From an uncultured Candidatus Saccharibacteria bacterium (GTDB taxonomy: Bacteria; Patescibacteriota; Minisyncoccia; Phycocordibacterales; Phycocordibacteraceae), in NCBI GenBank assembly GCA_964593365.1, contig CAZQGQ010000001.1, positions 178,384 to 242,383 on the forward strand: a stretch of DNA of 64,000 bases, read 5' to 3'. Below are positions 5,632-22,823 of the stretch, in pieces; the first letter of the stretch is position 1, and each line of letters starts with the position of its first letter. Both the position numbers and the translations under genes were made by a program. The notes beneath the pieces were generated by a model that was not told the origin of the DNA, did no database searches, and saw nothing but the letters and a program-made list of their open reading frames with translations.

Positions 5632-5634
5632 AGA

Positions 5635-6102: not shown

Positions 6103-6188
6103 GTGTCATCTATTCTAACCTGCGTAGAAATTAACGCGCCTAGGTAAGGTGTTTTCCCATCAGTAGAACTTGGTATACTGCCACCACC

Positions 6189-6893
6189 ATGCCTCCGAAT
6201 GAGAGCTTTGCTGCGCTTCGAAGCAAAAACACAGCGCCGGCATTTCATACGCGCTTCGAAAAGGCGTTTACGTTTATCAAGGGACATGTTGAGGAGCCTG
6301 GAGAGCCGCGTTTGTTCCGTAAAGTGAATATCTCCAAGTTCGACGTCATTCCGCTTGGAGTGCCGGAACGAATGCAGATGCTCATCGATGAATGCGAGAT
6401 ATATCTCGCGATGCCTATGTGGACCGATAAGTTCGGCACGAACCATCATCGAGTGGAAGACGAGGGCGAGCCTGGACGGCGTGATTGGCGCAACGATCCC
6501 GCATCCATTGCCGAATACGGCGCTGACGTCATGAAGGTGCTAAGCGAAGAGAACCGCCTCATGGTCAACAATATGACCAACATCCAGATAGCCGCACGAG
6601 GCCTCTGGAACGCGATGAATAGCACCATAATCGAATCCCCGGACATTGACCGACTCAAAGCCTCCGTCGAGGCTCTCTATCGCGCGTTCGGGGAGCGCGT
6701 TATGACAGAAGAAGAGACCAAAGGCATGACCGACAGGGTTAAGAAGTACATGCGCGAGCAGGTTTTTACTCTCTTCATGACCAAGTACAAAGACTGGCCG
6801 AATCTTGCTGAGGACGGGATAAACGGGAAAGTTCCGTTCGTAAAGGAGTTCAGCGCGAAGCTGCGCGAGTACTTAGACGTCGCTAGCAGCTAG
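6189..6893 (+). CDS. hypothetical protein
   Basis: 234-aa soluble ORF; no family recognised. Confidence 0.4.
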   Translation: MPPNESFAALRSKNTAPAFHTRFEKAFTFIKGHVEEPGEPRLFRKVNISKFDVIPLGVPERMQMLIDECEIYLAMPMWTDKFGTNHHRVEDEGEPGRRDWRNDPASIAEYGADVMKVLSEENRLMVNNMTNIQIAARGLWNAMNSTIIESPDIDRLKASVEALYRAFGERVMTEEETKGMTDRVKKYMREQVFTLFMTKYKDWPNLAEDGINGKVPFVKEFSAKLREYLDVASS

Positions 6894-8053
6894 CGCGTAT
6901 CCTTGAGCCAAAGAGAAGGCAAAAGCCCGAGAAGCATCACGACGCCAAGCGCGATAAAAAGGTACTGAAGCGGGAACGCGAACAGGAAGAGGACGCCGAG
7001 CAGGGGACCGATGATGTAGGCGATAGGCCGGAGCATCCGGTACGCGCTCACTTCGCCCGAGTCTCCGCCGTGCACGTGCTTGAAGAAATACGCTTCGCTC
7101 CCGATATCAAGGAGCGCGGCCCCGACGCGTGTACCAAAGAGTGCGAGTGCCCATACCCAGACGCTCGTAGCGGTAATAAGAGCAAGTGCCGCTACTGCAA
7201 TTGCAGAGAGCACGAAGCCTGTAAGCAGCACCTCCTGTTCGCCCCAGGCAGAGTCCTCAAGGCGACCCACAGGAATCTCAAGCACGAGGAAAGGGATGAG
7301 CATCACCGCAAAGACGATCGCCATATGCTCAAGCGGCATGCCGATGTACTCGTGGAGATAGAGAGGGACATACACGACCATGACCGAATAAAAGATCTGC
7401 AGCAGGAACTGCACGCAAAAGATGCTCTGGAGATCCTTAGAAGCAGAGACCTTTCGGAAGACTGCGGGCCAGTCGGGGCGCTCGTACTCTGCGTCCTGGA
7501 ACTCTCGAAGAAGCCTTCCAGAAATGATCGCAAGCGCGAAGAGCATCAGGGAGCCAACCAGATACACGAATGAGAACGCGCCATTTGCAAGAAGCACGAT
7601 CAGAAGGATCTGCGCCGCTGCCAGTCCTCCGTTGACGAGCGTCACGTACATGCCGCGACGCCCGCCCGTCTTATGGATGTCGCCTGAAACGGTTGCAAGG
7701 AAGATATCGATTAGCACGTAGAGGCTCACCGAAAGCCCGATCGCCGCTGAAAGCAATAACGCGGAGACCAGTGGGATAGTACTCACTGCTACTGCAAAAA
7801 AGAGCGCTCCTGCAGCAACGAAGCCCATGACAAGCAGGTGCCGGTCTCCGAACATGCGAAGCGCGAACGGGACAAGGAGCATGAGAGCAAGCGCGACAGC
7901 GTAGCCCAAGGCTGAGATCATGCCGACGCCCTGGTCGGTAAACCCAAGCTCATCCAGATAGGATGAGTTCAGGAAGATAATGAGCCCGTACTGAAGGCTG
8001 TAGAGAAAGGAAAGTATGAAAATGTTCCTGCGAAGGACGCTTGCAACAGTCAT
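6890..8053 (-). CDS. MFS-type transporter (12 TM)
   Basis: Hydropathy pattern of ~12 TM helices with MFS-like loops; 4-nt overlap with the convergent upstream gene. Confidence 0.65.
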   Translation of the reverse strand: MTVASVLRRNIFILSFLYSLQYGLIIFLNSSYLDELGFTDQGVGMISALGYAVALALMLLVPFALRMFGDRHLLVMGFVAAGALFFAVAVSTIPLVSALLLSAAIGLSVSLYVLIDIFLATVSGDIHKTGGRRGMYVTLVNGGLAAAQILLIVLLANGAFSFVYLVGSLMLFALAIISGRLLREFQDAEYERPDWPAVFRKVSASKDLQSIFCVQFLLQIFYSVMVVYVPLYLHEYIGMPLEHMAIVFAVMLIPFLVLEIPVGRLEDSAWGEQEVLLTGFVLSAIAVAALALITATSVWVWALALFGTRVGAALLDIGSEAYFFKHVHGGDSGEVSAYRMLRPIAYIIGPLLGVLFLFAFPLQYLFIALGVVMLLGLLPSLWLKDTR

Positions 8054-8096
8054 GACTCTCCTTATTCTAGCACCTGACTTCCGCTACTTCTGCGTG

Positions 8097-8462
8097 CTAC
8101 TGGCCGCTACCTTCTTTGCGGATAGCATCGAACTCGCGTTCAAACGTATCGATGACCTCGTCGCTGCCGTCCTCGATATCGATGAGCTGGTTTCGCGCTG
8201 AGTCGATAGCCTTGATGAGCTCGTCGAGCTTGAGGTGCACGGCATGCGCATCGCGGTTCTGGGTGTTCTGAATGAGGAACACCATGAGGAAGGTAAGGAT
8301 TGTCGTACCTGTGTTCACCATGAGCTGCCAGGTGGTAGAGAAATGGAACACGGGTCCCAAGACTGCCCAGAGCACAATGAGTGAAAAGGCGACGACAAAC
8401 GCCCACGGGGATCCGGTAACGCCGCTCGTCCAGTGAGCTACTCTTCGAAATAGGTCATGCAT
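8097..8462 (-). CDS. small membrane protein of the low-affinity iron permease (Fet4-like) / DUF1003-type family
   Basis: 'TGTTILTFLMVFLIQNTQNRDAHAVHLKLDELI' resembles the conserved core of these small bacterial permease-like proteins. Confidence 0.45.
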   Translation of the reverse strand: MHDLFRRVAHWTSGVTGSPWAFVVAFSLIVLWAVLGPVFHFSTTWQLMVNTGTTILTFLMVFLIQNTQNRDAHAVHLKLDELIKAIDSARNQLIDIEDGSDEVIDTFEREFDAIRKEGSGQ

Positions 8463-8567
8463 ATGCCCACATCATACCAGCTTCATAAGAGAGAGGGCCT
8501 GTTATCCGACCGAGCAAAAGATTGAAATAACCCCGTAAATTGGTTAGGATTCCCAAGTTCGCATCTA

Positions 8568-8642
8568 GCCGATGTAGCTCAGGGGTAGAGCAACTCCATG
8601 GTAAGGAGTAGGTCGGCGGTTCAATTCCGCCCATCGGCTCCA
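8568..8642 (+). tRNA. tRNA-Thr (GGU), CCA encoded
   Basis: Acceptor gccgatg/catcggc, anticodon stem-loop actcc-auGGUaa-ggagt, T-arm ggcggttcaattccgcc, 3' CCA. Confidence 0.8.
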
Positions 8643-8666
8643 GGACATGGTCACCCGTGTCTGTGC

Positions 8667-8742
8667 GCCATCGTAGCTCAGTTGGTAGAGCATCTCACTC
8701 GTAACGAGAAGGTCGCCGGTTCAATCCCGGCCGATGGCTCCA
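8667..8742 (+). tRNA. tRNA-Thr (CGU), CCA encoded
   Basis: Acceptor gccatcg/cgatggc, anticodon loop cuCGUaa, T-arm gccggttcaatcccggc, 3' CCA. Confidence 0.75.
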
Positions 8743-8745
8743 AAC

Positions 8746-9522
8746 TCACTTCGATCCTTTTTGTCTCCAGAGAAAGTCGAAATATCGTTGGTAATTCTTT
8801 GCGATCTCGGAGTTGATTATCTCAACGACAAAATACGACCCGATATACGAGCGAATAGCGATGCGATCATCCATAATCGCCGTGCAACTCGTGTCGCTTG
8901 TGATAAGTGGATTCTGTTTGAACTCAGTTAAGCCCTTCGTTGTCTTGGCGTACGTTCGGTCTTTAGCCATAACGTCAGGAACGATATGCTTCAAATGGAG
9001 TTTCTTTTGCTTTTGCAGATCTGCGAGTTCTTCAACTACCCCGGGACCCATAATGTCGTACCACTGCGGGGACACACCAAGAAAGCGAAGGGTGCTACCG
9101 ACTTTCGCATTTCCGTACGTTCTGCGCTCGTGTTGTCGTATCTCATCTATTCCTTCGTACACGACAATCCCTTGGGCACTGCCTTTTGAAAGGGAAGAGA
9201 GTTCTCTGATAGCGTCTTTTGCGACGGCCTCCTTCTCATGGATCGCACTTAAGAGCTGAATGGGTGGGAGCGCTCGGTATACGGCAACCCCTTTTATTTG
9301 GGATACGGATATAAGCTTCTTATCAACAAGTTCCGAAAGAGCCGTGTATACAAGATTTCGGTGAAGTCCCGTGCTTTTGATAAGTTCTCCCGCTTTAGCC
9401 TCGCCTTCGCGCGAGAGTTTCAGATACACCGTTGACTGGTTGGGAGTAAGCCCGACCTTTTGCAAGTTCTGATATAAGGCTGTCATCAGGTATATGATAG
9501 CGTTCGCATAAACCAGTGTCAA
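8746..9522 (-). CDS. TrmB-family transcriptional regulator (N-terminal wHTH)
   Basis: N-terminal 'LTPNQSTVYLKLSREGEAKAGELIKSTGLHRNLVYTALSELVDKKLI' HTH typical of the TrmB family; gene lies in a lower-GC segment. Confidence 0.55.
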   Translation of the reverse strand: MTLVYANAIIYLMTALYQNLQKVGLTPNQSTVYLKLSREGEAKAGELIKSTGLHRNLVYTALSELVDKKLISVSQIKGVAVYRALPPIQLLSAIHEKEAVAKDAIRELSSLSKGSAQGIVVYEGIDEIRQHERRTYGNAKVGSTLRFLGVSPQWYDIMGPGVVEELADLQKQKKLHLKHIVPDVMAKDRTYAKTTKGLTEFKQNPLITSDTSCTAIMDDRIAIRSYIGSYFVVEIINSEIAKNYQRYFDFLWRQKGSK

Positions 9523-9592
9523 TATGACAAAGCTGTCATAAGGGGAGGTGTCATCATAAATATGTTGACTTTACTGGATTTTCTATGATATT

Positions 9593-10015
9593 TTGCCCTC
9601 GCTACATATGACACATTCAACACCGACATCGACAGGCGACCCGTTCGGTTACTTACTTACCCTTGACCTATACGGGTGCCAAGAAGGCGCCTGTGATGAT
9701 CTTGATCTCTGTTATCGCTTCCTTGTTGATCTTGTAGAGAAGCTTGGCATGCATAAACAGTCACCGCCTTTCATATTCAGAAGCGACGAACAGAAGTATC
9801 CAGATAAAGCAGGTCTCTCCGGATGGGTTCCGCTCATAGAAAGCGGTATTCAGATACACACACTTATCCCGAAAAACTTCATATCAGTCGACGTTTACTC
9901 ATGTAGGGAGTTCTCGACAGATGAAATCGCCGAATTTGCCAAAGGATACTTCGCCTGCGAGGAGGTCGAGATGAACTTTGTCCTTCGAGGTTTGAAATAT
10001 AACCAAATAACCTAA
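9593..10015 (+). CDS. speH: S-adenosylmethionine decarboxylase proenzyme, small bacterial/archaeal class (pyruvoyl-dependent)
   Basis: Aligns by eye to B. subtilis SpeD: 'LYGC', processing-site 'ESG' and 'IQIHTLIPKNFISVDVYSCRE' (cf. [24 protein letters not shown]). Confidence 0.65.
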   Translation: MPSLHMTHSTPTSTGDPFGYLLTLDLYGCQEGACDDLDLCYRFLVDLVEKLGMHKQSPPFIFRSDEQKYPDKAGLSGWVPLIESGIQIHTLIPKNFISVDVYSCREFSTDEIAEFAKGYFACEEVEMNFVLRGLKYNQIT

Positions 10016-10020
10016 ATCTC

Positions 10021-10836
10021 ATGACTCGCCCTGAAATGCCGTCTTCTGTAGAAACAGATCTTTCTGCGATTGAGAGCAAGGACTTCGGTACCTATTGGTA
10101 CTTGGTCCAGAAGTTCTATCACGAGAAGTTCTTCAACTCAGACTATCTGGGAAGCCTTATTGCGTATCTCGATAAACTACAGCCAGCTAGGGTCCTTGAT
10201 GCTTCCTGTGGCATTGGGTATCCAGCTATTGAACTGGCTCAGCATGGTTTCAATATCACCTGCAGTGACGGCGACGAATCGCTTCTCCGGGTATTTGAAA
10301 AGCGATTGAGAGAGAGCGATGTTGCGATACCCATCCATCACGCTCGTTGGGCAGAGCTCCCAGAAAAAATAGATGGAACGTTTCCGATTGTCCTGTGTCT
10401 TGATAGTTCGATAACGTATGCAAACTCATGGGGAAGTGAAGGAGAAATAAATCTGCCTCAGACTCGGGAAGAGATACGTAAATCCCTTCAGGGTTTCTAC
10501 GACATGCTCGAACCTGGGGGCAAAGCCGTAATAGGCCTTGGTGAGTACGCCTTTACCGATGATCGGGTAGAGGGAAAGATCGTCGATCTAGGCACCCAAG
10601 CGATAGGAGGCCAGACCGTTCAGCTTGTCTGGAAGCTTGAGTTTGACTATGAACAGAAGAAGAAAACCTGGCACTCAGTCTTCACTACTAACGGTAGAGA
10701 ATATACGCGGACATTCTATAGCTACATGCTCATGGCAGACGAGCTTGAGGAGCTATTACGAGAGGTTGGATTCACCGCTATAGAAACTGAGCCAACTCCG
10801 GGCGGGTACGACAGAAACGTTATCGCAACAAAATAG
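10021..10836 (+). CDS. class I SAM-dependent methyltransferase, glycine/sarcosine N-methyltransferase-like
   Basis: 'RVLDASCGIGYPAIELAQHGFNITCSDGDESLLRVFEKR' parallels GNMT '[40 protein letters not shown]'; downstream 'LCLDSS..GGKAVIG' also parallels GNMT. Confidence 0.6.
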   Translation: MTRPEMPSSVETDLSAIESKDFGTYWYLVQKFYHEKFFNSDYLGSLIAYLDKLQPARVLDASCGIGYPAIELAQHGFNITCSDGDESLLRVFEKRLRESDVAIPIHHARWAELPEKIDGTFPIVLCLDSSITYANSWGSEGEINLPQTREEIRKSLQGFYDMLEPGGKAVIGLGEYAFTDDRVEGKIVDLGTQAIGGQTVQLVWKLEFDYEQKKKTWHSVFTTNGREYTRTFYSYMLMADELEELLREVGFTAIETEPTPGGYDRNVIATK

Positions 10837-10840
10837 ACAT

Positions 10841-10866
10841 CGGTTCAATCCCGTCGATGGCTCCCG
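10841..10866 (+). repeat. direct repeat of the 3' end (T-arm plus acceptor) of tRNA-Thr(CGU); putative attR-like duplication
   Basis: 'cggttcaatcccgtcgatggctccc' vs tRNA 3' end 'cggttcaatcccggccgatggctcca' (8716-8742); 24/26 identity. Confidence 0.6.
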
Positions 10867-10896
10867 AGAGTTAGCAACATACGTTAATATAGGGGA

Positions 10897-11268
10897 ATGG
10901 CAGGCAATAACGGACGTAATGGACCTCCCCCTCCACCAAAACCCCTAGAAGATTGGGAGCGAATCGATAGGATACGGCGCATTCTTGAAGATCTCGAGCA
11001 GGAGGATCAGCACCAAGAGCAGAGTATTGCGTCGCAGGAAGAGCAGGTTGCAATCGATGAGAGCGAGACAAAGCGCCTTTATGATTCATGGGCAGGCGTG
11101 CCGGAGGGGAAAGAAAAGTTTAAGAAGAGCATGGAAGAGCATATTGCCGCCAAGCGGAAAGAGATCGCGCGCCGTCGCGAGGTGCTTAAGGAAAGCAAAG
11201 AAGGGATAAAGAAGTTGAAGGAGGAGCTTGAGCAAATCGCTCGAAACCTTGATGTAACCAAGCACTAG
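10897..11268 (+). CDS. hypothetical coiled-coil protein with N-terminal poly-Pro tract
   Basis: 123-aa charged helical ORF ending 5 nt before prfB, in the -1 frame relative to it. Confidence 0.4.
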
Positions 11269-11279
11269 GATTGTTTTCT

Positions 11280-12158
11280 ATGGCCGACGAAACAGTTAAT
11301 CCCCGCATTCTTGAGATTGAAGTGATGATGATGGAGCCCGATTTCTGGGCGGACAAAGACGCTGCGCAGAAAATCGTGCGCGAGTACCAGGCGTTGAAAG
11401 ACGGAGGCACGGGAGACCCGCTTCAAGACGGGGACGCGACGCTTGCAGTTCTTGCGGGAGCTGGCGGAGACGACGCGGAAGATTTTGCCGCGATGCTAAA
11501 ACGCATGTACGAAGGGTACGCGAAGATAAAAGGATGGGGCGTACGCTTACTAGATGAGAACGAGAACTCGCAGGGCGGATATCGAAGCGTTCTGCTTGAG
11601 ATCAAAGGTTCTGGCGTATACGGCCGTCTGAAGCATGAGGCGGGCGTGCATCGCCTTGTCCGCATCTCTCCTTTTAATGCAAACGATAAGCGTCAGACGT
11701 CCTTTGCGATGGTCGAGGTGCATCCGACGGAAGCTCCTAAAGATAAGATCGAGCTTAAGGCCGATGACCTCGACATCCAGTTCGCGCGCTCAGGAGGGGC
11801 AGGCGGACAGAACGTAAACAAACGAGAGACCGCAGTACGCATCGTGCACACCCCGACGGGGATAAGCGCTCACGTCTCAAGCGAGCGGAGCCAACTGGCT
11901 AACCGAGAGAAGGCCATGGAGCTCGTGAAGGCAAAGCTCTACAAGCTTCAGGAGGAAGAGCGTGAAGCGGAGACCGCAGGACGCACGCTTTCTAAGACGA
12001 CGGCGAACGAATGGGGCAGCCAGCGCCGTTCCTACGTCCTCCACCCCTATAAGATGGTGAAAGACCACGCCTCAGGGCACGAATCGGGGAATCCGGATGC
12101 GGTATTAGCTGGTGAGCTTGATGATTTTATAGACGCAGCTTCCGCGGGTGGGGTATAA
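11280..12158 (+). CDS. prfB: peptide chain release factor 2 (short form, no canonical +1 frameshift site)
   Basis: GGQ motif '[11 protein letters not shown]' and the RF2-specific 'SPF' tripeptide. ATG 11280 has AGGA 9 nt upstream (an alternative TTG start is at 11271). An in-frame TGA at 11250 blocks upstream extension. Confidence 0.8.
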
Positions 12159-12168
12159 TGCACCGGAC

Positions 12169-12849
12169 ATGATTTATTTCGACAATGTGACGAAGACGTA
12201 CCGCGACGGTACTCCCGCTCTTGATGAGATAACGCTCTCCATCTCTCCAAAAGAATTCGTCTCCATTGTCGGACACTCGGGCGCAGGCAAGACAACGCTC
12301 CTCAAGATGCTTCTCGTTGAGGATCATCCAACTACAGGCTCTGTCTTTTTTGAATCGACCGACATACATACGCTTCCGAAGAACTCCCTCCACCACTATC
12401 GCCGCAAGATCGGCACCGTCTTCCAGGATTTCCGCTTGATCCCGCACCGAACTGCCTACGAGAACATCGCGTTTGCGATGGAAGCCGCAGGACGCGCAGA
12501 CGATGAGATCGCGTCAGACGTTCCCTACATTCTTGATCTCGTTGACCTTGGAGATAAGGCGAATCATTTCCCTAACCAGCTCTCCGGAGGGGAGCAGCAG
12601 CGCGTTGCGATCGGCCGCGCGATCATCAACCAGCCGGACGTTATCGTCGCGGATGAGCCGACCGGAAACTTGGATCCGGTTAACACTTATGACGTCATTG
12701 AAATCTTGAAGAAGATTAACGAGCTCGGCACGACCGTCATCATCACGACGCACAATAAGGGCGTCGTTGATTCTGTCGGCAAGCGCGTCATCACGATGGA
12801 CAAGGGACGCGTGGTGCGAGACGACGCTAACGGCCGCTATAGCCTATAA
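12169..12849 (+). CDS. ftsE: cell division ATP-binding protein FtsE
   Basis: Walker A 'GHSGAGKTT', ABC signature 'LSGGEQQR', Walker B 'ADEPTGNLD'; immediately upstream of ftsX. Confidence 0.85.
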
Positions 12850-12851
12850 CT

Positions 12852-13778
12852 ATGAACTGGATGACCCTCAAGCGAATTGCAATTAACGGAGCGAGAAGCT
12901 TCGCGAGAAGCGGTGCGGTTTCGTTTGCGACCGTGCTCATCATGACCGTTACCTTGGGCATCATCGGCCTCTTGGTATTCTTGTCTGCTCTTTTGACCTA
13001 CACGCTGAACGAAATCAAGGATAAAGTCGACGTCAACATCTACTTTGCTACAAGCGCTGCAGAAAGCGACATCGTCGCGCTCCAGAAGGATTTGACTGAG
13101 CTTCCTGAAGTCGAGCGCGTTACCTATACCTCTCGCGAACAAGCACTCGAGGAGTTCCGCGAGCGCCATGCTGGCGATCAGCTCACCCTCCAGGCCCTCG
13201 AAGAGCTTGGTGATAACCCCCTTGGGGCCTCCCTTGCTGTTAAGGCCAAGGATCCTTCCCAGTACGAGCGCATCGTTACGTTCCTTGAGGATGAGCCTGC
13301 GCTCTCAGGAGATGGCACATCGATCATCGACCGCGTGAACTATTTCCAGAATAAGCTCGTGATTGACCGCCTCACAGGCGCTATCCGGGCAACGGAAGCC
13401 GCAGGCGCCCTCATCGTCATACTCTTTGCGCTTGCCTCAGCGGTCATCACCTTTGCTACCGTTCGTCTTGCCATCTACACGACTCGAGACGAGATCGGGG
13501 TCATGCGCCTCATGGGAGCCTCGAACTTCTTCATTCGCGGTCCGTTCATCGTGACGGGCATCATGGCAGGCGTTATCGCAGCCGTCATCGTCCTGGTCGC
13601 CCTCTATCCGATCTCCTGGTACGCAGGATCTGCGACAGCATCATGGCTTGGCGGATTCAACGTCTTCACGTACTACACTGCAAACTTCCCGCTCTTCTTC
13701 CTGACGCTTGTAGGAGCAGGTGTGTTGCTTGGAGGACTCGCAAGCTTCTTCGCCGTCCGTCGGTATCTCAAGATCTAA
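12852..13778 (+). CDS. ftsX: cell division permease FtsX
   Basis: 4-TM topology with a large periplasmic loop; directly follows ftsE. Confidence 0.8.
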   Translation: MNWMTLKRIAINGARSFARSGAVSFATVLIMTVTLGIIGLLVFLSALLTYTLNEIKDKVDVNIYFATSAAESDIVALQKDLTELPEVERVTYTSREQALEEFRERHAGDQLTLQALEELGDNPLGASLAVKAKDPSQYERIVTFLEDEPALSGDGTSIIDRVNYFQNKLVIDRLTGAIRATEAAGALIVILFALASAVITFATVRLAIYTTRDEIGVMRLMGASNFFIRGPFIVTGIMAGVIAAVIVLVALYPISWYAGSATASWLGGFNVFTYYTANFPLFFLTLVGAGVLLGGLASFFAVRRYLKI

Positions 13779-13779
13779 T

Positions 13780-15453
13780 ATGGCCATCAAAGGACACAAA
13801 TACATATTCGTCATCGGCGGAGTAATGTCGGGTGTCGGGAAAGGGATCGCCACATCTTCGATCGGCCTTATTTTGAATAGACGCGGGTTTGAAGTGAATC
13901 TTGCAAAGATTGATCCGTACTTGAACGTTGATGCGGGCACGATGAATCCGACAGAGCACGGTGAAGTGTTCGTGCTTAACTCGGGGCTTGAGACCGATCA
14001 AGATATGGGCAACTACGAGCGATTCCTTGGGCGCGACCTTGAGGCGCAAGACTACATGACCTCCGGCATGGTGTATCAGTCGGTGATCGCTCGCGAGCGA
14101 GCGCTTGAATACGGAGGCAAGTGCGTCGAGGCGGTCCCGCATGTCCGCGATGAAATTCTTCGAAGAATCGAATCCGCAGCTGCGCATAACGGAAGCCAGA
14201 TCTCGGTTATCGAAGTTGGAGGAACCGTAGGGGATTTCCAGAACGCTCTCTTTATAGACGCTGCTCGCGTTTTGAAGGCAAAGCATCCGGGAGACGTTCT
14301 TTTCGTGCTGGTGTCCTATCTTCCGGTTCCCTCGACTATCGGAGAGATGAAGACGCGACCGACCCAGCATGCTATCCGCGAGCTCTCAAGCTATGGCGTC
14401 CAGGCAGACTTCATCGTCGCTCGCGCGAACATGCCCCTCGATGACAAGCGCAAGGAGAAGCTTGCTATCTCGTGCTCGGTGCTTCCTGAGCGAATCATCT
14501 CCGCTCCTGACGTTGAATCAATCTATGACGTGCCGCTTAACTTTGAGAAGGATAACCTCGGAGACCTTCTGCTTGATGCACTCTCTCTTTCCACGTCAAA
14601 GCGAGCAAATCTTTCTGACTGGGAAGCGTTCGTGAAGCGCACGAAGATCAAGGAGCCGACGGTGTCGATTGGTATCGTAGGGAAGTATTTCGATACGGGT
14701 GACTTCGTCCTTTCAGACGCGTATCTTTCAGTCATAGAAGCTATCAAGTTCTCAGCCGCTGAGATAGGAGTAAAGGCGAACATTACCTGGTTGAATTCGA
14801 AAGATTCGAAAGCCCACGACGGGACAATGCAGGGCTGGGACGGCGAACGCTTGAAGGAGCTCGACCAGTTCGATGGAATCATCGTGCCGGGAGGGTTTGG
14901 CGAAACCGGCATTGAGGGCAAGATACGCGTTATCCAATACGCGAGAGAGAAGAAGATTCCATACTTCGGGCTCTGCTACGGCATGCAGCTTGCAGTCATT
15001 GAGTTCTGCCGTAACGTGCTCGGCCTCACAAATGCCCACACGGTTGAGATTAATCCTGCAACCGAGCATCCGATCGTTGATGTGATGCCTGAACAGAAAG
15101 ACGTGATCGCCCAGAGTAACTACGGCGGCACCATGCGCCTTGGGTCATATACCGCGGAGATCAAGAAAGGGACCATCGCTCGGGAAGCGTATGGCAAGGA
15201 CAAGGTAGAAGAGCGCCACCGCCACCGCTACGAGATCAATCCCGAGTATGTGGAGCAGATCGCCAAAGGAGGAATGACCTTCTCTGGAACCTCTCCAGAC
15301 GGCGTTCTCATGGAAATCGCTGAGCTTCCCAAAGACGTGCACCCATTCTTTCTTGGAACCCAGTTCCATCCAGAGCTCATAGCGCGCCCACTTACTCCGC
15401 ATCCGTTGTTCACGCAGTTCCTCAAAGCAGCGAAAGAGCGTTCAGGCAAATAG
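13780..15453 (+). CDS. pyrG: CTP synthase
   Basis: N-terminal 'KYIFVIGGVMSGVGKGI' and a C-terminal glutamine amidotransferase domain ('GLCYGMQ', 'HRHRYEIN'). Start moved to ATG 13780. Confidence 0.9.
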   Translation: MAIKGHKYIFVIGGVMSGVGKGIATSSIGLILNRRGFEVNLAKIDPYLNVDAGTMNPTEHGEVFVLNSGLETDQDMGNYERFLGRDLEAQDYMTSGMVYQSVIARERALEYGGKCVEAVPHVRDEILRRIESAAAHNGSQISVIEVGGTVGDFQNALFIDAARVLKAKHPGDVLFVLVSYLPVPSTIGEMKTRPTQHAIRELSSYGVQADFIVARANMPLDDKRKEKLAISCSVLPERIISAPDVESIYDVPLNFEKDNLGDLLLDALSLSTSKRANLSDWEAFVKRTKIKEPTVSIGIVGKYFDTGDFVLSDAYLSVIEAIKFSAAEIGVKANITWLNSKDSKAHDGTMQGWDGERLKELDQFDGIIVPGGFGETGIEGKIRVIQYAREKKIPYFGLCYGMQLAVIEFCRNVLGLTNAHTVEINPATEHPIVDVMPEQKDVIAQSNYGGTMRLGSYTAEIKKGTIAREAYGKDKVEERHRHRYEINPEYVEQIAKGGMTFSGTSPDGVLMEIAELPKDVHPFFLGTQFHPELIARPLTPHPLFTQFLKAAKERSGK

Positions 15454-15632: not shown

Positions 15633-16799
15633 CTACTTTGAGAAGTCGATTGCTATCTCTCCTGGGCCCGATCCCGCTTCTTTCTCTTTGCGGTTCTTTC
15701 TGCAGGGAAGGGTGATGGTGACGATAGTCCCTTTGCCCAAATCACTTTTAATGGAGATGCTTCCTTTATGAATCTTGACGAGCTCGCTCACGATCGCAAG
15801 CCCGAGCCCCGAGCCTCCGCTGGCACGGTTTCTCGACTGGTCGCCTCGATAAAAGGGCTCGAAGATCCGGTCCAGGTCCTTCTCGCCGATACCGACGCCT
15901 GAGTCCTCGACGATAATGTCCATCTGTCCGCGGTAGTTGGGTTCGGTTGAGATCTGGACGGTCCCGCCCACGAGAGAGTAGTTAATGGCATTCTTGACGA
16001 CGTTGGAGACGATCTGTTCGATCGCTGAGGCGTTCCCCCAAACGAAGCAGTAATCGTTCTTGCTTACTACAATGCTTATACGCTTATGCTCAGCGAGGTC
16101 TTCAAGAGAGCTTGCGACACGCTCCAATATAGGGCTCATGTCGACGTTAGAGAATTCCATCTTCTCCGGACGAAGCAAGGCGTTCATTGAAAGGAGGTTG
16201 TTGATGATGTCTGAGATACGGTCGAGCTCTTCGATATTGCTTCGAAGCGTCTCCTGGGTATCCGTATCAAGGCGCTCATTGAAAAGTGCGACCTCGGTAT
16301 TGGTCTTGATGATTGAAAGGGGAGTGCGAAGCTCGTGGGCTACGTTCCCGACAAACTGCTTCTGGCTCTTGAGGGCGTTTCCAGCGGGGACGAGAGCGAT
16401 CCTCGTGATGAGGTAGCCAAACGTTGCAGCTACCGCTAAGACGCCTGAGCCTGCAAGCACCATGGCACGCTGCTTCTCGTACTCGAGGTTGTACGCGATC
16501 ATGGTGCTATCGAGGTTCGGGGCGGTTCCTGAGACGATACTCTTGGCGATGCTGTCGGTGATGCTGCTGATGAGGCCCGTGACGACCTCGTCATACATCA
16601 TAGATAGCGCGAAGAGCATGATGCCGAGCACCACGACGGCGAAGCCGACCTGTAAGAGGACGACGTTCCAGCCGGTTCGATAGAAGATGTCCCTGCGGTA
16701 CCTACGTGCGAAGGCGGTAACCGATTCCGCGAATGGTTTCAAATATGCTTGGAGCGTTCTTCTGATCGAGCTTTTGTCTGAGGTTTTTGATGTGGACAT
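15633..16799 (-). CDS. two-component sensor histidine kinase
   Basis: H-box 'HELRTPLS' and G-box 'GGSGLGLAIV'; 2 N-terminal TM helices. The annotated start overlaps the response regulator by 98 nt, so the true start is probably internal. Confidence 0.8.
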   Translation of the reverse strand: MSTSKTSDKSSIRRTLQAYLKPFAESVTAFARRYRRDIFYRTGWNVVLLQVGFAVVVLGIMLFALSMMYDEVVTGLISSITDSIAKSIVSGTAPNLDSTMIAYNLEYEKQRAMVLAGSGVLAVAATFGYLITRIALVPAGNALKSQKQFVGNVAHELRTPLSIIKTNTEVALFNERLDTDTQETLRSNIEELDRISDIINNLLSMNALLRPEKMEFSNVDMSPILERVASSLEDLAEHKRISIVVSKNDYCFVWGNASAIEQIVSNVVKNAINYSLVGGTVQISTEPNYRGQMDIIVEDSGVGIGEKDLDRIFEPFYRGDQSRNRASGGSGLGLAIVSELVKIHKGSISIKSDLGKGTIVTITLPCRKNRKEKEAGSGPGEIAIDFSK

Positions 16800-17376
16800 C
16801 GACGACGTTGCTGAAGGCTTCGTAATTGAAGTCCCATAGATGCGCGATGAAATCCTCGCGATTTATGACTTCGTTTGGGTGGCGCATGAAGTATTCCAGG
16901 AGCCTGAACTCTTTGAGGGTGAGGGCCACTTCCTTGCCGTCCTTGGTCACCTTGTGCTGCACCGGATCAAGTTCGATGTCGTCAGCCTTGAGGACTGTCG
17001 GCAGCGCTTCCGATGGTCGGCGCAGTATAGCCTGGATGCGAGCGATGAGCTCATCGAAGGAAAACGGCTTCACCATGTAGTCGTCAGCCCCAGCAAGAAG
17101 AAGTTCTACCTTATGTTCGGTTTCGTTTCTCGCTGTTAGGACGAGAATAGGAGTGGTCACCCCCTGTTCCCGGGCTTCTTTGCAGATCTCATTGCCCGTC
17201 TTGGAAGGGAGCATGAGGTCGAGGATGATGAGGTCGTAGTCGCCTGCGTGGACCAGGATCCTCGTGAGGGCCTCCTGGCCGTCCCCAAGCGTGTCTACGG
17301 CGTACCCCTTGGAGGTGAGGCCCTTGGACACGATGTTCGCAAGCTTCGGTTCGTCTTCAACGAGAAGTATTCGCAT
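16702..17376 (-). CDS. OmpR-family response regulator (receiver plus winged-helix)
   Basis: 'MRILLVEDEP..DLIILDLMLP' receiver domain and C-terminal '..GYRLRT' winged helix. Confidence 0.85.
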   Translation of the reverse strand: MRILLVEDEPKLANIVSKGLTSKGYAVDTLGDGQEALTRILVHAGDYDLIILDLMLPSKTGNEICKEAREQGVTTPILVLTARNETEHKVELLLAGADDYMVKPFSFDELIARIQAILRRPSEALPTVLKADDIELDPVQHKVTKDGKEVALTLKEFRLLEYFMRHPNEVINREDFIAHLWDFNYEAFSNVVDVHIKNLRQKLDQKNAPSIFETIRGIGYRLRT

Positions 17377-17575: not shown

Positions 17576-17646
17576 TGCGAGATCGTCTAATGGTAGGACA
17601 ACGGACTCTGAATCCGTTTATCTAGGTTCGAATCCTAGTCTCGCAG
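17576..17646 (+). tRNA. tRNA-Gln (CUG)
   Basis: Acceptor tgcgaga/tctcgca, anticodon stem-loop acgga-cuCUGaa-tccgt, T-arm ctaggttcgaatcctag. Confidence 0.7.
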
Positions 17647-17658
17647 CAGTCATGAATA

Positions 17659-17726
17659 CCCTGTCTGGTGACCTAGACAGGTAACAGTCCGAAACGACCC
17701 GTCTAATGACCTAGACGGGTCGTTTC
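17659..17726 (+). repeat. two tandem hairpins sharing the loop core GACCTAGAC (7-bp stem and 15-bp perfect stem) between tRNA-Gln and the island
   Basis: cCTGTCTggtGACCTAGACAGg and GAAACGACCCGTCTAatGACCTAGACGGGTCGTTTC. Confidence 0.55.
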
Positions 17727-17851
17727 GTTCTATCTACACAAACTACGAAGATAGGTGCTCTTAACGCTATGGGTCAATAGAGATCCATTTATATGGGATC
17801 TTTATTGTGATAGAATTACTGGAAGGTTATATTCAGTAGCCTAACAATTTT

Positions 17852-19390
17852 ATGAGTAAAAAAGACAACAAGAAGACACTCAAAGTCCCTGCACTTAGGG
17901 TGAATCAGTGGCTAAAGAAGTGGGACGGTATTAAGTGGGATATCGGACAACACAGAAGGAAGCCGGAGAACTGTTTCTATGTTTTTTCGCTGTCAGCAAA
18001 GCAACTCAGAGCTCTTTCAGGTGTTTATAGGCGAGATACGCAAACGCGTACTGGTCTGCAAAGAACCCATGAGCCAAAGCGATCCGAGAATATCGGTAAG
18101 TACGTTAAATATGGATACCCTTGGTCTGACTTAACAGACGATCAGAGAAAGGAAGGGCGTTTTGATCATTTACAGAAACCGGGATGGCTACCTACAGCAA
18201 TTGTGGTAAACATTCTTACAAAGGACGATTCACGCAATGGGAAAAAAGTTGCAGCTGAAGATTTGATCAAAATCATAAGTGACACACAAAAAAATACTCA
18301 AATAGAGCTTCCAAAATCATTTACAAATTCTGAAACATGGAAAGTAAAACAGGAACGCCCCATCGAGATTATTGATGGGCAACATCGCTTGTTGGCTTTT
18401 GACGATGACGAGATATCCGGTGATTACGAATTACCAGTAGTTGCATTTTATGGACTGGATATTAGTTGGCAGGCATATCTATTTTGGACGATCAACATTA
18501 AGCCAAAACGAATCAACCCAAGTTTAGCTTACGATCTTTATCCATTACTGCGTACAGAGGAATGGTTGGAGCAGTTTGAAGGGCATAAAGTTTACAGAGA
18601 AGTTAGGGCACAGGAACTTGTTGAAATGCTTTGGTCAGAAGAGAAGAGTGCATGGTATCGAAGAATTAATATGTTGGGAGAAAGTGGCGGCCCTTCAGTT
18701 ACTCAGGCTGCGTGGATTCGAGCTCTTACTAAAACTTTTATCAAATCATTTGAGGGAGGAAAGAAAAATAAAATTGGAGGATTGTTTGGTGCGCCGGTTG
18801 GAAAAGACAAAATTGCAATTCCTTGGAATCGCGCTCAGCAAGGAGCGTTGTTGATCCATTTATGGAATGAGATAAGTGAGGCCGTTGAAAATTCCAAAGA
18901 AAGATGGGTAAAGGAGCTTCGTGATAAAAAGAAACAAGAATACAAGCGAGGGATTGATGGAGATGTTGCTTTATTCGGGCCGTATTCGTTGTTGACTAAT
19001 GACCAAGGTGTCTCCGTGGTTCTAAATATTAGCAATGACCTCCTCTTTCTGGAGAAAGACAAGCTTAACCTACAGGAGTGGGAATTTGATGCCGAGGGTA
19101 GCGTTACCGAAGCGCTCAGTTCACTTACAAAAAAACAAAAAAAGTTATCAGAATACGTATCTCGTCTCGCTAAAGCGATAGCAACTTTTGACTGGAGAAC
19201 ATCTGCAGCTGTGGGCTTAACGGAAAATGAACGGACGCAGAAACTTTCTTATAGAGGTGGTAGTGGGTATAAGGAATTTCGCAGGCAACTTCTTAAGCAT
19301 CTTATCAATGATGCTCATTTTGGTGACTCTGCAAAGGAGATCTATCAAGCTCTAGGATATGCCAAGGAAGACACCAAAAAAATCAAATAA
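17852..19390 (+). CDS. DGQHR-domain protein (DndB-like, ParB/sulfiredoxin fold)
   Basis: Signature 'EIIDGQHRLLAF'; low-GC gene, first in a four-gene overlapping operon. Confidence 0.65.
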   Translation: MSKKDNKKTLKVPALRVNQWLKKWDGIKWDIGQHRRKPENCFYVFSLSAKQLRALSGVYRRDTQTRTGLQRTHEPKRSENIGKYVKYGYPWSDLTDDQRKEGRFDHLQKPGWLPTAIVVNILTKDDSRNGKKVAAEDLIKIISDTQKNTQIELPKSFTNSETWKVKQERPIEIIDGQHRLLAFDDDEISGDYELPVVAFYGLDISWQAYLFWTINIKPKRINPSLAYDLYPLLRTEEWLEQFEGHKVYREVRAQELVEMLWSEEKSAWYRRINMLGESGGPSVTQAAWIRALTKTFIKSFEGGKKNKIGGLFGAPVGKDKIAIPWNRAQQGALLIHLWNEISEAVENSKERWVKELRDKKKQEYKRGIDGDVALFGPYSLLTNDQGVSVVLNISNDLLFLEKDKLNLQEWEFDAEGSVTEALSSLTKKQKKLSEYVSRLAKAIATFDWRTSAAVGLTENERTQKLSYRGGSGYKEFRRQLLKHLINDAHFGDSAKEIYQALGYAKEDTKKIK

Positions 19391-20717
19391 CACCTTTCCT
19401 TCGAATGCATATTCAAGGGAAGCGACCCAGGCAACCTTCAATAGACTGAAGGCTTATCTTGATGATGATCGCTGGCTTGCGCGAGGGAATCGATATGCGA
19501 TCAAATGTGTTGATCGTATTCGAAAGGACTATAAGCAAGACTCTAGAACGAAAGTAATTACAAACGATATAGTCGAGAAGCATCTTGCTGAATATATAGC
19601 TGCTTCTGCGCCTGTCCACGCAATAGATGGGTGGGGTTTTTTAGGGAAAGCAATCGCAAGTCACTCAATTGGAGATATTGAGGCATGTAAGCATTTTGCT
19701 TATTATGCGCAGCTTCGAGCTGTCATGTCACTGATGGCCAGTGAAGGTATTGGAGTTTTTGATAACAAGCATTTTGCAATAAAGAATGCGGATCGGAGAA
19801 CTTCGTCTGTGACAGCCCCGAAAAAGAGTTCCACGCATGATTTTGCAGGTTCGCAGTTTAGATCATGGGCAAAATCAAAGAGTTCCGGAGCTCTGCTTGA
19901 GAAGATAATTCGACCCAGAGGTATCTCTCTTGAGGAATGGTTTAAGGAAATTTCACCAACAAAAGTTAGTTGGCTGGCTCAAGACTGGCTTGATCATTGG
20001 GGATATGACTTAAATAAATTTAAGAAAGATCAAGATGCTCGAAACAGAGCAAGTTATAGACCAACAATTCTAGACCGTGACTTAAATTATCGAAACGCTT
20101 CAGTTGTAAGTGACTCGATTGAACTTGTGGATGCGATCTGGAGAATGTGTTCACCTGATAGCGTCGGTGGTTTCAGCCTGGATTTGCAGCTAATGAGAGT
20201 TAGTTGGGATGAATATTCGCGTATGAGAGGAACGACTCCGACTCGAGCTGATAGAGAAAAGGTTTTAAGTGACTTAGGTATCTTGCAACCAGAATTAGGT
20301 AATCTAGTCGACTTTTTTGAACGTACAACTTCATCCGTAGATTCAATCATCTTAACTGAAGCACGTAAGAAAGGTTCACCCGAAGATGTCGATTATCACT
20401 CGCAAATGCTATGTCGTGCCACAATTCTGCTACGTCTTGCCACTGGGGCATCAGCTTCTCTTATAGCAAAGGCTAAGTTCGATAAGGATGATTTGAAGTT
20501 TTGGTCAGATTTTGTTGGTGAGAACTCGGGCTTGTGGGAGTCAGGTGCTCCAAACCCTATTACAGATATGTGGAACGAAGTTGAAGAAGCTTTGCATGAC
20601 CTCAACGTTAAAGCACCCTCAATTAATAATCATTATAAATGGCGTTCTGAACTCGCAAATGAAGTACTGACCTTGTCTGGGTGTGAGCGTATTGGTTTAG
20701 CCCGATTTTGCCTATGA
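19359..20717 (+). CDS. hypothetical protein, no recognisable domain (island component 2)
   Basis: 452 aa; 32-nt overlap with the upstream gene and 10-nt overlap with the downstream one. Only a weak P-loop-like 'GWGFLGKA'. Confidence 0.5.
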   Translation: MPRKTPKKSNNTFPSNAYSREATQATFNRLKAYLDDDRWLARGNRYAIKCVDRIRKDYKQDSRTKVITNDIVEKHLAEYIAASAPVHAIDGWGFLGKAIASHSIGDIEACKHFAYYAQLRAVMSLMASEGIGVFDNKHFAIKNADRRTSSVTAPKKSSTHDFAGSQFRSWAKSKSSGALLEKIIRPRGISLEEWFKEISPTKVSWLAQDWLDHWGYDLNKFKKDQDARNRASYRPTILDRDLNYRNASVVSDSIELVDAIWRMCSPDSVGGFSLDLQLMRVSWDEYSRMRGTTPTRADREKVLSDLGILQPELGNLVDFFERTTSSVDSIILTEARKKGSPEDVDYHSQMLCRATILLRLATGASASLIAKAKFDKDDLKFWSDFVGENSGLWESGAPNPITDMWNEVEEALHDLNVKAPSINNHYKWRSELANEVLTLSGCERIGLARFCL

Positions 20718-21961
20718 AATACATGGGCTCAAAACGTTATATGTTAAATAACGGTCTTGGTACTTTGATACGAGATCAGTTACCTCATGCTAACAGGGTG
20801 ATAGATCCATTTTGTGGAGCAGGATCAGTAATTCAATTTGCAGCAAAGAATTCTGATAAGGAGATAATTGCCGGCGATCTTCAGCAGTATGCAATTGTAC
20901 TCGCAAGGGCTGTTATTGAACGTACAAAGCCAGTTGATGTGCCTATGTTACAGACTAGTTGGTTACTTAAGGCGGAAGAACAACTGTCGAGATCTAAGCT
21001 TTTTCTGCAAGCAAAGAAGAACGACATTAATTATTCCCAAAATGTAGAAGAGTGGGTAAAAAAATCTCGCCAACTATGTGAGATTCCTTCAAAGATTGGA
21101 CCTGTATGGGGTGCTTACGGTGGTCATTACTTCAGTCCTAAGCAAGCGCTTATTATTGATTATCTTATTAAGTGTTTGCCTGAGAAGACCACTGACCGGA
21201 ATGTCTGTTTAGCTGCCCTGATAACTGCAGCTTCAAGATGTGCTGCAGCTCCGGGACATACAGCCCAGCCTTTTCAACCTACTGAAGGTGCTTCTAAGTT
21301 TATAAAGATCTCTTGGAACATGGATGTGCTCAAGTCTTGTTTAAATGCTTTGACTGAGATCGCACCGCTACATGCCAAAACAAATGGTGCTGCATATGTT
21401 GGAAGCGCTGAGAAGCTCACACAAAAAATGCAAAAAGGAGATCTGGTAATAATTGACCCTCCTTATTCAGGGGTACAATATAGTCGTTTTTATCATGTAT
21501 TAGAGACCATCGCGCGTGGCAAATGCGGAAAGGTAGAAGGGGTAGGGCGTTATCCTGTATTGTCAGAGCGCCCTCAGTCGTCTTTTAGTAATGTTGGTCA
21601 ATCTGTCGAAGCTCTCGATATTCTTCTAAAAAAGTTATCAGAGAGAGAAGTTGTCGTAATTTTTACTTTCCCTAAGGGCGATTGCAGTAACGGTTTATCC
21701 GGAAAGGTGATTGCAGACAGTGCAAAAAAGTATTTCACAATAGATAAAAAGAGCAGAACACACCATCATGTAGTGAAGGGTAAGTTCAGCACTTTAGGTG
21801 GAAATAATAAACTTAAACTAAAAAACAACGAGGTTAAAAGATCTCGAGTGACCTCTGAGGAGCTTATCCTCCTTCTTAAGCCGAGAGTATCAAAGTCAGT
21901 ATCACGTAGCAAACAAAAACAAAAGATAAAAACACGTAAGAGCTATGCACAATATCGGTAA
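20708..21961 (+). CDS. D12-class (Dam-like) N6-adenine DNA methyltransferase with a Lys-rich C-terminal tail
   Basis: 'YMGSKRYML' (cf. KWAGGKR), 'DPFCGAGSV' (FxGxG) and catalytic 'IIDPPYSG' (DPPY). Confidence 0.7.
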   Translation: MPMKYMGSKRYMLNNGLGTLIRDQLPHANRVIDPFCGAGSVIQFAAKNSDKEIIAGDLQQYAIVLARAVIERTKPVDVPMLQTSWLLKAEEQLSRSKLFLQAKKNDINYSQNVEEWVKKSRQLCEIPSKIGPVWGAYGGHYFSPKQALIIDYLIKCLPEKTTDRNVCLAALITAASRCAAAPGHTAQPFQPTEGASKFIKISWNMDVLKSCLNALTEIAPLHAKTNGAAYVGSAEKLTQKMQKGDLVIIDPPYSGVQYSRFYHVLETIARGKCGKVEGVGRYPVLSERPQSSFSNVGQSVEALDILLKKLSEREVVVIFTFPKGDCSNGLSGKVIADSAKKYFTIDKKSRTHHHVVKGKFSTLGGNNKLKLKNNEVKRSRVTSEELILLLKPRVSKSVSRSKQKQKIKTRKSYAQYR

Positions 21962-22823
21962 AAAGATAACTATATATCTCGTTACAGGACTTCCAAAAGG
22001 AGTTCGAGAGGCCCGTATCGATCAGTGGAGTGGTAAAGCAGTTTGCGGTCCTCGAAACGCATTAAAAGAGATAATCGCTTTGCCTGAAGTTGAGTCGGGC
22101 GCATGTATATATTTTCTTATAGGCATTCCAGATGACGGAGGGTTGCTTGATGTATATGTTGGAGAAGCAGATGGGTTTAAAGAAAGAATTAAACACCATG
22201 ACTACAAGAAAGAGTGGTGGCAAGACGTTGTAGTATTTGTCAGTCAAGATAAATCACTTACAAAAACGGGAATTCAGTATCTTGAGAGTGTTTGTATCGA
22301 GCGTCTAAAGCAGATTGGCAAATGTAATCTTAAGAATGGTAATAGTCCCTCTCTACCTACAACGCCTAAGGAAGACTTAAGTGGTCTCGAACTGTTTTAT
22401 ATGAATCTTGCAACAATTATGCCCTTGCTTGGTTATGATATCTTTGTTCAAAACGAAAAATCACCTGGTAAGAATACGGTAGAGAGTCCAGTTTTTACGT
22501 GCAAGAAAGGAGTGAATATTGTTGCGGAAGCATATTTACTCGAAGATGGAAAAATGCGTGTTTTAAAAGGGTCAAAAGCGTCAGCAGAAGAAACACCTTC
22601 TTTTCAAAGCCATCCATATAAAAAACTAAAAAATGAGTTAATAAAAATCAATCGCTTGGTACCTCAAGGTGACATTCTTATCTTTTCTGATGATTACGTT
22701 TTTGACAGCTCAAGCGCTGCATCAGCCGTTATACAAGCTCGATCTTCACCGGGACCTATAGAATGGAAACTGAAAAAGGGAGGTAAAACTTTGAGAGAGT
22801 ATCTAAACTCAAAGATTCAATGA
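21945..22823 (+). CDS. GIY-YIG nuclease domain protein with a C-terminal DUF4357-like domain
   Basis: 'ACIYFLIGIPDDGGLLDVYVGEADGFKERIKHH' fits GIY-(10-11 aa)-YIG plus the Arg/Glu pattern; 17-nt overlap with the methyltransferase. Confidence 0.55.
   Translation: MHNIGKKITIYLVTGLPKGVREARIDQWSGKAVCGPRNALKEIIALPEVESGACIYFLIGIPDDGGLLDVYVGEADGFKERIKHHDYKKEWWQDVVVFVSQDKSLTKTGIQYLESVCIERLKQIGKCNLKNGNSPSLPTTPKEDLSGLELFYMNLATIMPLLGYDIFVQNEKSPGKNTVESPVFTCKKGVNIVAEAYLLEDGKMRVLKGSKASAEETPSFQSHPYKKLKNELIKINRLVPQGDILIFSDDYVFDSSSAASAVIQARSSPGPIEWKLKKGGKTLREYLNSKIQ

Follow-up and report, generated by a model that had tools for sequence, protein, structure and literature searches.

A widespread, unnamed protein family paired with DGQHR/ParB-fold proteins beside exchangeable DNA-modification enzymes

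What is the role of a protein that resembles no known domain, and whose gene is held by overlaps between a DndB-like gene and a DNA methyltransferase gene? The question is raised by a stretch of 64,000 nucleotides (nt) from an uncultured Candidatus Saccharibacteria bacterium (hereafter the window; assembly GCA_964593365.1, contig CAZQGQ010000001.1), in which an open reading frame (ORF) encodes a protein of 452 amino acids (aa) that we refer to as X. The original prediction, made from the letters of the window, was that X is co-expressed with its neighbours, is functionally linked to them, and may be the specificity, sensor, or effector subunit of the system. Our analyses show that X belongs to a large, widely conserved family without annotation or name, and that it is obligately paired, at the genetic level, with a specific subfamily of DGQHR proteins. 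The functional unit is this DGQHR–X pair plus any modification enzyme, an arrangement that points to a hitherto undescribed module of three genes for the marking of DNA or for defence.

The evidence for the pairing is first of all one of gene order. In a survey of ORFs with hidden Markov models across 80 genome loci, a DGQHR gene (~510 aa) lies directly upstream of X and on the same strand in 78, the other two being cut by contig ends, and the gap between the two genes is typically −4 to +5 nt. Every locus informative for co-occurring DGQHR neighbours therefore has such a gene beside X. In addition, the trio of DGQHR gene, X, and methyltransferase gene is found in all nine IMG/VR viral contigs that encode an X relative, including very divergent copies of X, and on two plasmids. 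When all neighbourhood ORFs were clustered, the only recurrent families were those of the DGQHR protein, of X, and of the D12 methyltransferase; a conserved stand-alone nuclease did not appear. This regularity lends strong support to the co-expression and functional link that had been read from the overlaps in the window.

The modification enzyme is far less constant. A DNA-modification gene is present in 70 of the 75 loci informative on this point (93%), and belongs to at least six unrelated kinds. Directly downstream of the pair we find the long form of the D12 methyltransferase (44 loci) or its short, Dam-like form (13 loci); in seven loci a D12 gene is elsewhere in the locus, in three of these ahead of the DGQHR gene. 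Three cyanobacterial loci (L018, L030, and L078) carry DndC, a phosphoadenosine phosphosulfate (PAPS) reductase, and DndD, an ATPase like the structural maintenance of chromosomes (SMC) proteins, after the pair. The remaining classes occur in single loci: a type-I-like N6_Mtase (L074), a beta-class N6_N4 methyltransferase directly upstream (L046), and an MT-A70 enzyme directly downstream (L066). In the tree of X the Dnd-linked loci group together in a single clade inside those linked to a methyltransferase, and therefore the pair has been retained and the modification module exchanged.

Sequence divergence tells the same story. We compared pairwise identities by the mirror-tree approach in 42 loci with a long methyltransferase, and obtained a correlation of r = 0.78 between the DGQHR protein and X, as opposed to 0.47 between X and the methyltransferase and 0.50 between the DGQHR protein and the methyltransferase (maximum under label permutation, 0.17). 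The DGQHR protein and X thus form a tight evolutionary unit. Mean pairwise identity is 0.51 for the DGQHR protein, 0.47 for the methyltransferase, and 0.34 for X, making X the fastest-evolving of the three; this rate, together with its variable segments (136–158, 241–255, 286–345, and 406–435), is what one would expect of a component under pressure from an arms race.

The gene itself is real and intact, and is neither a pseudogene nor a misframed fusion of its neighbours. The ORF is exactly as first described, with an ATG start, a product of 452 aa, and overlaps at both ends: its start shares 32 nt with the end of the DGQHR gene, and its stop codon TGA (20715–20717) forms an ATGA overlap with the methyltransferase ATG at 20714. 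Should the methyltransferase start at an alternative in-frame TTG at 20708, the overlap would be 10 nt. X aligns over its full length (100%) with homologues that are 78%, 64%, and 58% identical to it, and an identical protein is recorded on 11 contigs. X is predicted to be soluble (maximum 19-residue hydropathy, 1.33).

How large is the family? A word-indexed search returned 139 relatives of ~430–460 aa, every one of them without a name or labelled "hypothetical", and without a Pfam domain. An exhaustive profile search of 1.84 billion cluster representatives then gave 1,224 relatives at E ≤ 1e-3, of which 912 are at E ≤ 1e-30; each represents a cluster at 50% identity. The best 150 of these profile matches are nearly all ~420–490 aa long (a few down to 380) and match in a single stretch. 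In GTDB contigs, sampled at one genome per species, 206 stretches encode a relative, that is, at least 206 species. Bacterial members come from Patescibacteria, Omnitrophota, Planctomycetota, Acidobacteriota, Chloroflexota, Cyanobacteria, Actinomycetota, Alpha-, Gamma-, and Deltaproteobacteria, Verrucomicrobiota, Ignavibacteria, Nitrospinota, and Elusimicrobia, and an archaeal member comes from Methanoregula. No relative was found among 50,697 phage genomes, and neither X nor the trio is described in the literature that we searched for "DGQHR".

The lack of a recognisable domain in X is upheld by all of the collections searched. X has zero matches in Pfam, NCBIfam, PADLOC, and PHROGs; as a single sequence it has nothing significant in the PDB (best E 1.5), and the family profile gives no PDB match at E ≤ 10. 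Known nucleotide-binding, nuclease, and methyltransferase motifs are absent, as had been claimed. The one hint in another direction, a P-loop-like stretch GWGFLGKA, does not hold: the letters are present, but they do not form a Walker A motif in the family, since K97 is Arg in 35 of 59 members, residue 98 is Ala rather than Ser or Thr in 55 of 59, and the stretch sits within a predicted long helix (73–103). The motif [AG]xxxxGK[ST] is absent from the sequence of X. Derivation of X as a paralogue of the C-terminal half of its DGQHR partner was also considered and rejected (hhalign probability 0.3%).

What the family does have is a striking set of conserved residues. In an alignment of 59 members (A1), which served for both conservation analysis and structure modelling, 23 columns are invariant, and about 14 polar residues are kept across phyla at ~33% overall identity (S83, H87, D90, Y115, Y116, R120, H160, D217, D224, R228, S232, Y233, D275, and R353). 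Conservation is concentrated in cores at 76–135, 211–240 (D217, D224, and R228-N-x-A-S232-Y233-R-P), 346–360, and 436–450. The family signature is D-x3-A-R-N-x-A-S-Y-R-P at 224–235, which includes the motif RNxASYRP, and H347-x5-R353 is a further conserved motif. On helices 73–103 and 107–128 the invariant residues lie on single faces, as judged by helical periodicity, which suggests a pocket. An invariant polar set of this kind would be typical of an active site rather than of a scaffold, and the same periodicity points to its clustering in space.

The structure prediction that had been proposed as a check gave a confident model with no convincing relative in the PDB. AlphaFold2, run with the alignment above, returned a mean predicted local distance difference test score (pLDDT) of 91.6 and a predicted template modelling score (pTM) of 0.92. 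The model is almost wholly helical, with one small beta-hairpin at 138–151, and a Foldseek search against the PDB found no relative (best E 0.26, TM < 0.2).

The reading towards which we lean, while holding it tentatively and short of thinking it probable, is that DGQHR–X is a nucleoside triphosphate (NTP)-dependent module of two proteins that reads whether DNA carries a modification. It would belong to an undescribed system like those of restriction-modification (R-M), in which X would be the catalytic or effector subunit. The adjacent, exchangeable enzyme would mark host DNA, here as a Dam-like methyltransferase that makes N6-methyladenine (m6A) and elsewhere by phosphorothioation through DndC and DndD. 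The DGQHR protein would be an NTP-dependent switch that binds DNA, like the ParB-fold domains of GmrSD, BrxU, and SspE, and X would have a novel helical fold bearing a conserved site of His, Asp, Arg, and Tyr residues, with which it would act on DNA that lacks the mark. We infer that the two proteins form a complex, that X is an enzyme, putatively a nuclease, and that the system would serve in defence.

Several observations lead us to favour this restriction-like reading. The obligate gene order and the close co-evolution of the pair speak for it, as does the exchange of the modification module around the pair. Only three families recur and there is no separate nuclease, so any effector must be the DGQHR protein or X; because no other conserved effector is present, because X has invariant His, Asp, Arg, and Tyr residues resembling an active site, and because X evolves fastest of the three, X is the better candidate. 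The system is also mobile and lies among restriction genes, which is a further reason for the preference, as is the behaviour of BREX, which likewise swaps modification chemistry around a constant core. With respect to the roles first proposed for X, an enzymatic or effector function (or that of a sensor) is favoured by the invariant polar residues and the fast rate, and that of a methyltransferase specificity subunit is disfavoured.

A number of points weigh against the restriction-like reading. Neither X nor its DGQHR partner has a recognisable nuclease domain, and we know of no precedent for the recognition of m6A as well as phosphorothioate marks by a single module. In the three cyanobacterial loci the pair is exactly in the position of dndB ahead of dndC and dndD. 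A GIY-YIG nuclease gene that follows the methyltransferase in the clade of the window could itself supply restriction. In addition, five of the 75 informative loci have no DNA-modification gene within ~8 kb. Lastly, the characterised proteins of the DGQHR type are on the modification side, DndB being reported as a non-essential regulator and DpdB as an ATPase required for modification (PMC4507180, PMC12839542).

Much of this can be turned into a case for the main rival explanation, which we regard as possible and rather doubtful: that DGQHR–X governs DNA-modification enzymes or loads them, as an elaborated DndB or DpdB in which X would have no degradative role. The ParB-fold NTPase would bind DNA or slide on it, and X would couple it to the neighbouring modification enzyme. 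The pair would either keep modification from going too far, through control of transcription or direct control of the kind reported for DndB, or enable modification, as DpdB does for DpdA. The dndB-like position of the pair, the undetectable nuclease domain, and the GIY-YIG protein as a separate restriction partner in the clade of the window would all agree with this. So would the partner's family: the curated cut-offs are passed by the upstream protein, and not by X, both for the DGQHR domain (TIGR03187, 81.8 bits, cut-off 58.85) and for Pfam DndB (34.6, cut-off 29.1), and DndB and DpdB, the known members of the DGQHR family, are encoded in operons for DNA modification (PMC4507180, PMC10853773, PMC12839542). 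Fusions of the ParB fold to S-adenosylmethionine-dependent methyltransferases are common and bind ATP, and a DndB-like protein binds both ATP and GTP (bioRxiv 10.1101/2025.10.10.680097). Against a governor stands, to begin with, its size, since a two-protein regulator of 960 residues would be unparsimonious for a single methyltransferase. Moreover, the invariant polar residues of X look catalytic, the fast evolution of X would be unusual for a regulator of housekeeping style, and co-evolution with the methyltransferase is much weaker than within the pair. The indifference of the pair to modification chemistry and enzyme family (five methyltransferase classes plus Dnd) is also hard to square with enzyme-specific coupling.

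The same indifference can be built into a bolder form of the restriction-like reading, which we likewise regard as possible and rather doubtful. Here DGQHR–X would be a "modification-agnostic", NTP-dependent restriction module, consisting of a ParB-fold switch and a nuclease or effector of an unseen all-helical fold, plugged into five unrelated classes of m6A methyltransferase and into Dnd.

Two further explanations are less likely than either the restriction-like or the governor reading. The first, which we consider improbable, is that X is a divergent HEPN-type RNase or another suicide effector, with the DGQHR protein sensing infection or a failure of modification and X degrading RNA or nucleotides as an abortive-infection backup. 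DndB was earlier described as a ParB domain fused to HEPN (PMC3632139), and when the 59 members of the alignment were compared with Pfam at E ≤ 5 the outcome, besides noise, was a single match to HEPN (PF05168, one of 59 members, E = 0.04), X itself being unmatched. Among the sequences analysed, two ORFs encode HEPN proteins of the DUF86 type, too few for a useful HEPN profile. The model of X has marginal structural matches to HEPN-like four-helix bundles, no stronger than those to other helical bundles. In contrast to HEPN proteins (for example, PDB 1wol, 1ufb, and 2hsb), X lacks the catalytic motif Rx4-6H and has no significant sequence or profile match; we treat this as a possible resemblance at the level of the predicted fold, and not as membership.

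The second, that X is a DNA-sequence specificity (target-recognition) subunit of the adjacent methyltransferase in the manner of HsdS, is very improbable: a variable central region (286–345) between conserved cores, translational coupling to the methyltransferase, and a mildly basic isoelectric point (8.7) would suit it, but D12 enzymes of the alpha group have their own target-recognition region (here ~120 residues between FxGxG and DPPY), X is kept where the methyltransferase is replaced by unrelated classes or by DndC and DndD, five unrelated modules in all, and X co-evolves with the DGQHR protein rather than with the methyltransferase. The sole apparent fusion of X to a methyltransferase (826 aa, in locus L075 at 6314–10400, from a long-read metagenome-assembled genome of the Solirubrobacteraceae) was considered as a "Rosetta stone" and set aside. 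The DGQHR gene of that locus is itself frameshifted (404 + 149 aa), sister loci keep the genes separate, and the fusion is probably an indel artefact.

How does the trio compare with known systems? Among the systems of PADLOC v2 (including MADS, BREX, and Ssp), X is in no family, its partner has a weak match to DpdB alone (6e-8), and the methyltransferase matches the generic MTase_II (9e-19) and mad2 (1e-6). The likeness to dndBCDE lies in the partner's fold, the thresholds it passes, and the position of the pair in the three cyanobacterial loci. However, the partner is ~510 aa long and far under the cut-off of the DndB-type equivalog TIGR04172 (60.7 versus 450 bits), X has no Dnd counterpart, and most loci, including the window (where dndC and dndD are absent from the island), have a methyltransferase without dnd genes. 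In the canonical dndBCDE operons of Salmonella and Streptomyces, to our knowledge, no gene lies between dndB and dndC. The literature that we searched has no mention of a gene at this place, and published accounts of cyanobacterial "dndBCD" operons within it leave the extra gene X unmentioned. In these cyanobacterial loci (about 5850–14600) X lies between the dndB-like gene and dndC/dndD, with genes for Uma2 nucleases and for another SMC ATPase of the DndD type upstream.

DndB is reported to repress the dnd operon under modulation by ATP and to be non-essential (PMC4507180); a later re-reading holds that it may be an NTPase, a nuclease, or an effector (PMC10853773). In the Dpd system, too, a ParB-like DGQHR ATPase works with a DNA-modifying enzyme, but our partner scores 29.9 bits against a cut-off of 300 in the DpdB model NF041060, the tRNA-guanine transglycosylase (TGT)-like DpdA and DpdC are absent from the island, and PADLOC contains no Dpd protein to which X is related. 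GmrSD, BrxU, and SspE combine a ParB-fold DUF262 NTPase with a DUF1524 His-Me nuclease, sometimes split into GmrS and GmrD. X differs in having neither a DUF1524/His-Me match nor (D/E)H...N...N motifs. Those systems are also modification-dependent (type IV) and without a cognate methyltransferase, whereas DGQHR–X is nearly always linked to a modification enzyme. BREX has a constant non-modification core accompanied by an m6A methyltransferase (type 1) or by a DndC-like PAPS reductase that replaces the methyltransferase PglX (type 4) (PMC12914056); the replacement is thus a precedent for the same swap around DGQHR–X, although BrxC, PglZ, and BrxL are absent here and X has no match among PADLOC families.

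At the level of the system, the theme of a ParB-fold protein with a DNA-modification enzyme is known from Dnd and Dpd, and what we describe is a new variation on it; at the level of the protein, X is an unclassified family in which structural relatives went undetected. A family of 1,224 clusters is outside Pfam, NCBIfam, PADLOC, and PHROGs, yet its genomic pairing is extremely regular. If X is the effector of a restriction-like module, the trio would be a new, compact defence system of the R-M kind, and X would probably have a new nuclease fold. If the module is agnostic to modification, the trio would be a compact defence system that no present catalogue lists and that more than 200 species carry, ranging from bacteria of the candidate phyla radiation to methanogens, and at least this class of DndB-like proteins would be effectors and not mere repressors. 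If the pair is a governor, it would provide a handle on the long-debated function of ParB-fold proteins of the DndB/DpdB type, one class of which would need a dedicated partner. Either way an annotation is corrected, as the cyanobacterial "dndBCD" operons hold an overlooked gene.

Often, though not in every locus, the trio has neighbours linked to defence or mobility. It directly adjoins type I R-M genes in L007/L010, L043, L053, and L068, among others, an Mrr-type nuclease is encoded in L062, and an integrative and conjugative element (ICE) with a type IV secretion system is near the trio in Herbiconiux. On plasmid pRt932 of Rhizobium tumorigenes the trio has a Tn7-like element nearby. Ten flanking genes sampled from loci that had not been examined comprised three R-M components, one AAA_5 ATPase, five housekeeping genes, and one unknown. 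Together, the low-GC island at a tRNA gene with its PDC-S14 gene, the adjoining type I R-M and DarTG-like genes, the Tn7-like element, and the ICE suggest a mobile, defence-like setting. Type I or IIG R-M genes (hsdR, hsdM, hsdS, and ORFs of the N6_Mtase family) lie directly 5′ of the DGQHR gene in L007/L010 (1088–10426), L043, L053, L058, L067, and L068, in several of these on the same strand and at gaps of 14–429 nt, which suggests that some copies of the trio lie within a type I R-M operon or have been added to one.

Zymomonas mobilis offers a tractable experimental copy of the trio. Plasmid pZZM405 of strain ZM4 (NC_013788.1; L098) encodes at 5328–8990 the DGQHR protein WP_012954783.1, X (WP_012954782.1), and a Dam methyltransferase (WP_012954781.1), followed by a DarTG-like pair of DUF4433 and macro-domain genes, and identical copies are on plasmids of strains CP4 and NRRL B-12526. 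PGAP names X a "hypothetical protein" on both pZZM405 and pRt932. In the published ZM4 methylome each of the three m6A motifs has been attributed to another enzyme (PMC8432527). This says nothing about the Dam enzyme of the trio, as the strain studied carries pZM32–39 and the trio is only on records of the pZZM405 type, a plasmid that the methylome apparently does not cover. In Mycobacterium abscessus, a DGQHR protein and a Dam-type methyltransferase are among four accessory genes associated with certain clades (PMC9248903).

In the window, the trio and a fourth gene form an island of four overlapping genes at 17.8–22.9 kb, with a GC content of 0.39–0.43 compared with ~0.54 in the flanks (Table 1). 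tRNA genes are typical insertion sites of genomic islands, and the tRNA-Gln(CTG) gene at the left edge is the probable insertion site here; at the island itself we found no integrase gene, and no att-like direct repeats flank it.

Table 1. Coordinates in the window of X, its neighbours, and the left edge of the island.
Feature	Position	Strand	Description
X	19359..20717	+	452 aa, ATG start; unannotated family, predicted nearly all-alpha; known domains: none
DGQHR/DndB-like ParB-fold protein, 512 aa	17852..19390	+	Upstream partner of X
D12-class (Dam-like, alpha-group) N6-adenine DNA methyltransferase, long form	20714..21961	+	415 aa from ATG, 417 aa from TTG at 20708
GIY-YIG-like nuclease with C-terminal DUF4357	21945..22823	+	Overlaps the methyltransferase gene by 17 nt
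tRNA-Gln(CTG)	17576..17647	+	ARAGORN; Rfam tRNA, 67.8 bits; left edge of low-GC island
Two similar palindromes	17660..17682 and 17690..17727	+	Terminator-like scan; the second with a 16-bp stem; between tRNA and operon start

The methyltransferase of the window matches Pfam MethyltransfD12 (6.1e-19) and has the catalytic motifs that a cognate enzyme of a type II R-M system would have, FxGxG (FCGAG) at residue 33 and DPPY at residue 248. The fourth gene matches PADLOC PDC-S14 (1e-80), Pfam DUF4357 (6.7e-15), and phrog_12629; its N-terminus carries a GIY-YIG-like motif, IYFL-x14-YVGEA..R, and its DUF4357 region is weakly RAMA-like. Its product may be a nuclease that senses methylation and works with the methyltransferase, and is a candidate restriction endonuclease, in the clade of the window only. 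Besides the window, only L009, L031, and L072 have a DUF4357/PDC-S14 gene after the trio, and this gene is clade-specific and outside the conserved core.

Upstream of the operon, the core shared by the two palindromes (GTCTNNTGACCTAGAC) occurs exactly twice in the window, both times here, with one further match at two mismatches (position 12988) and 0.3 occurrences expected by chance. The palindromes may be terminators of the tRNA gene or operator sites for the DGQHR protein. A small regulator gene was considered as a general upstream feature and dismissed, since a helix-turn-helix (HTH) controller resembling C-proteins precedes the trio in only ~4 of 86 loci. In L009, the closest genome relative, an XRE-type, C-protein-like HTH protein of 71 aa is encoded at 6198–6413 (+), 71 nt upstream of the DGQHR gene. 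To the left of the tRNA gene in the window, a two-component system (a HisKA/HATPase_c kinase and an OmpR-type regulator) lies at 15633–17376 (−); it has host-like GC content and is apparently unrelated to the island.

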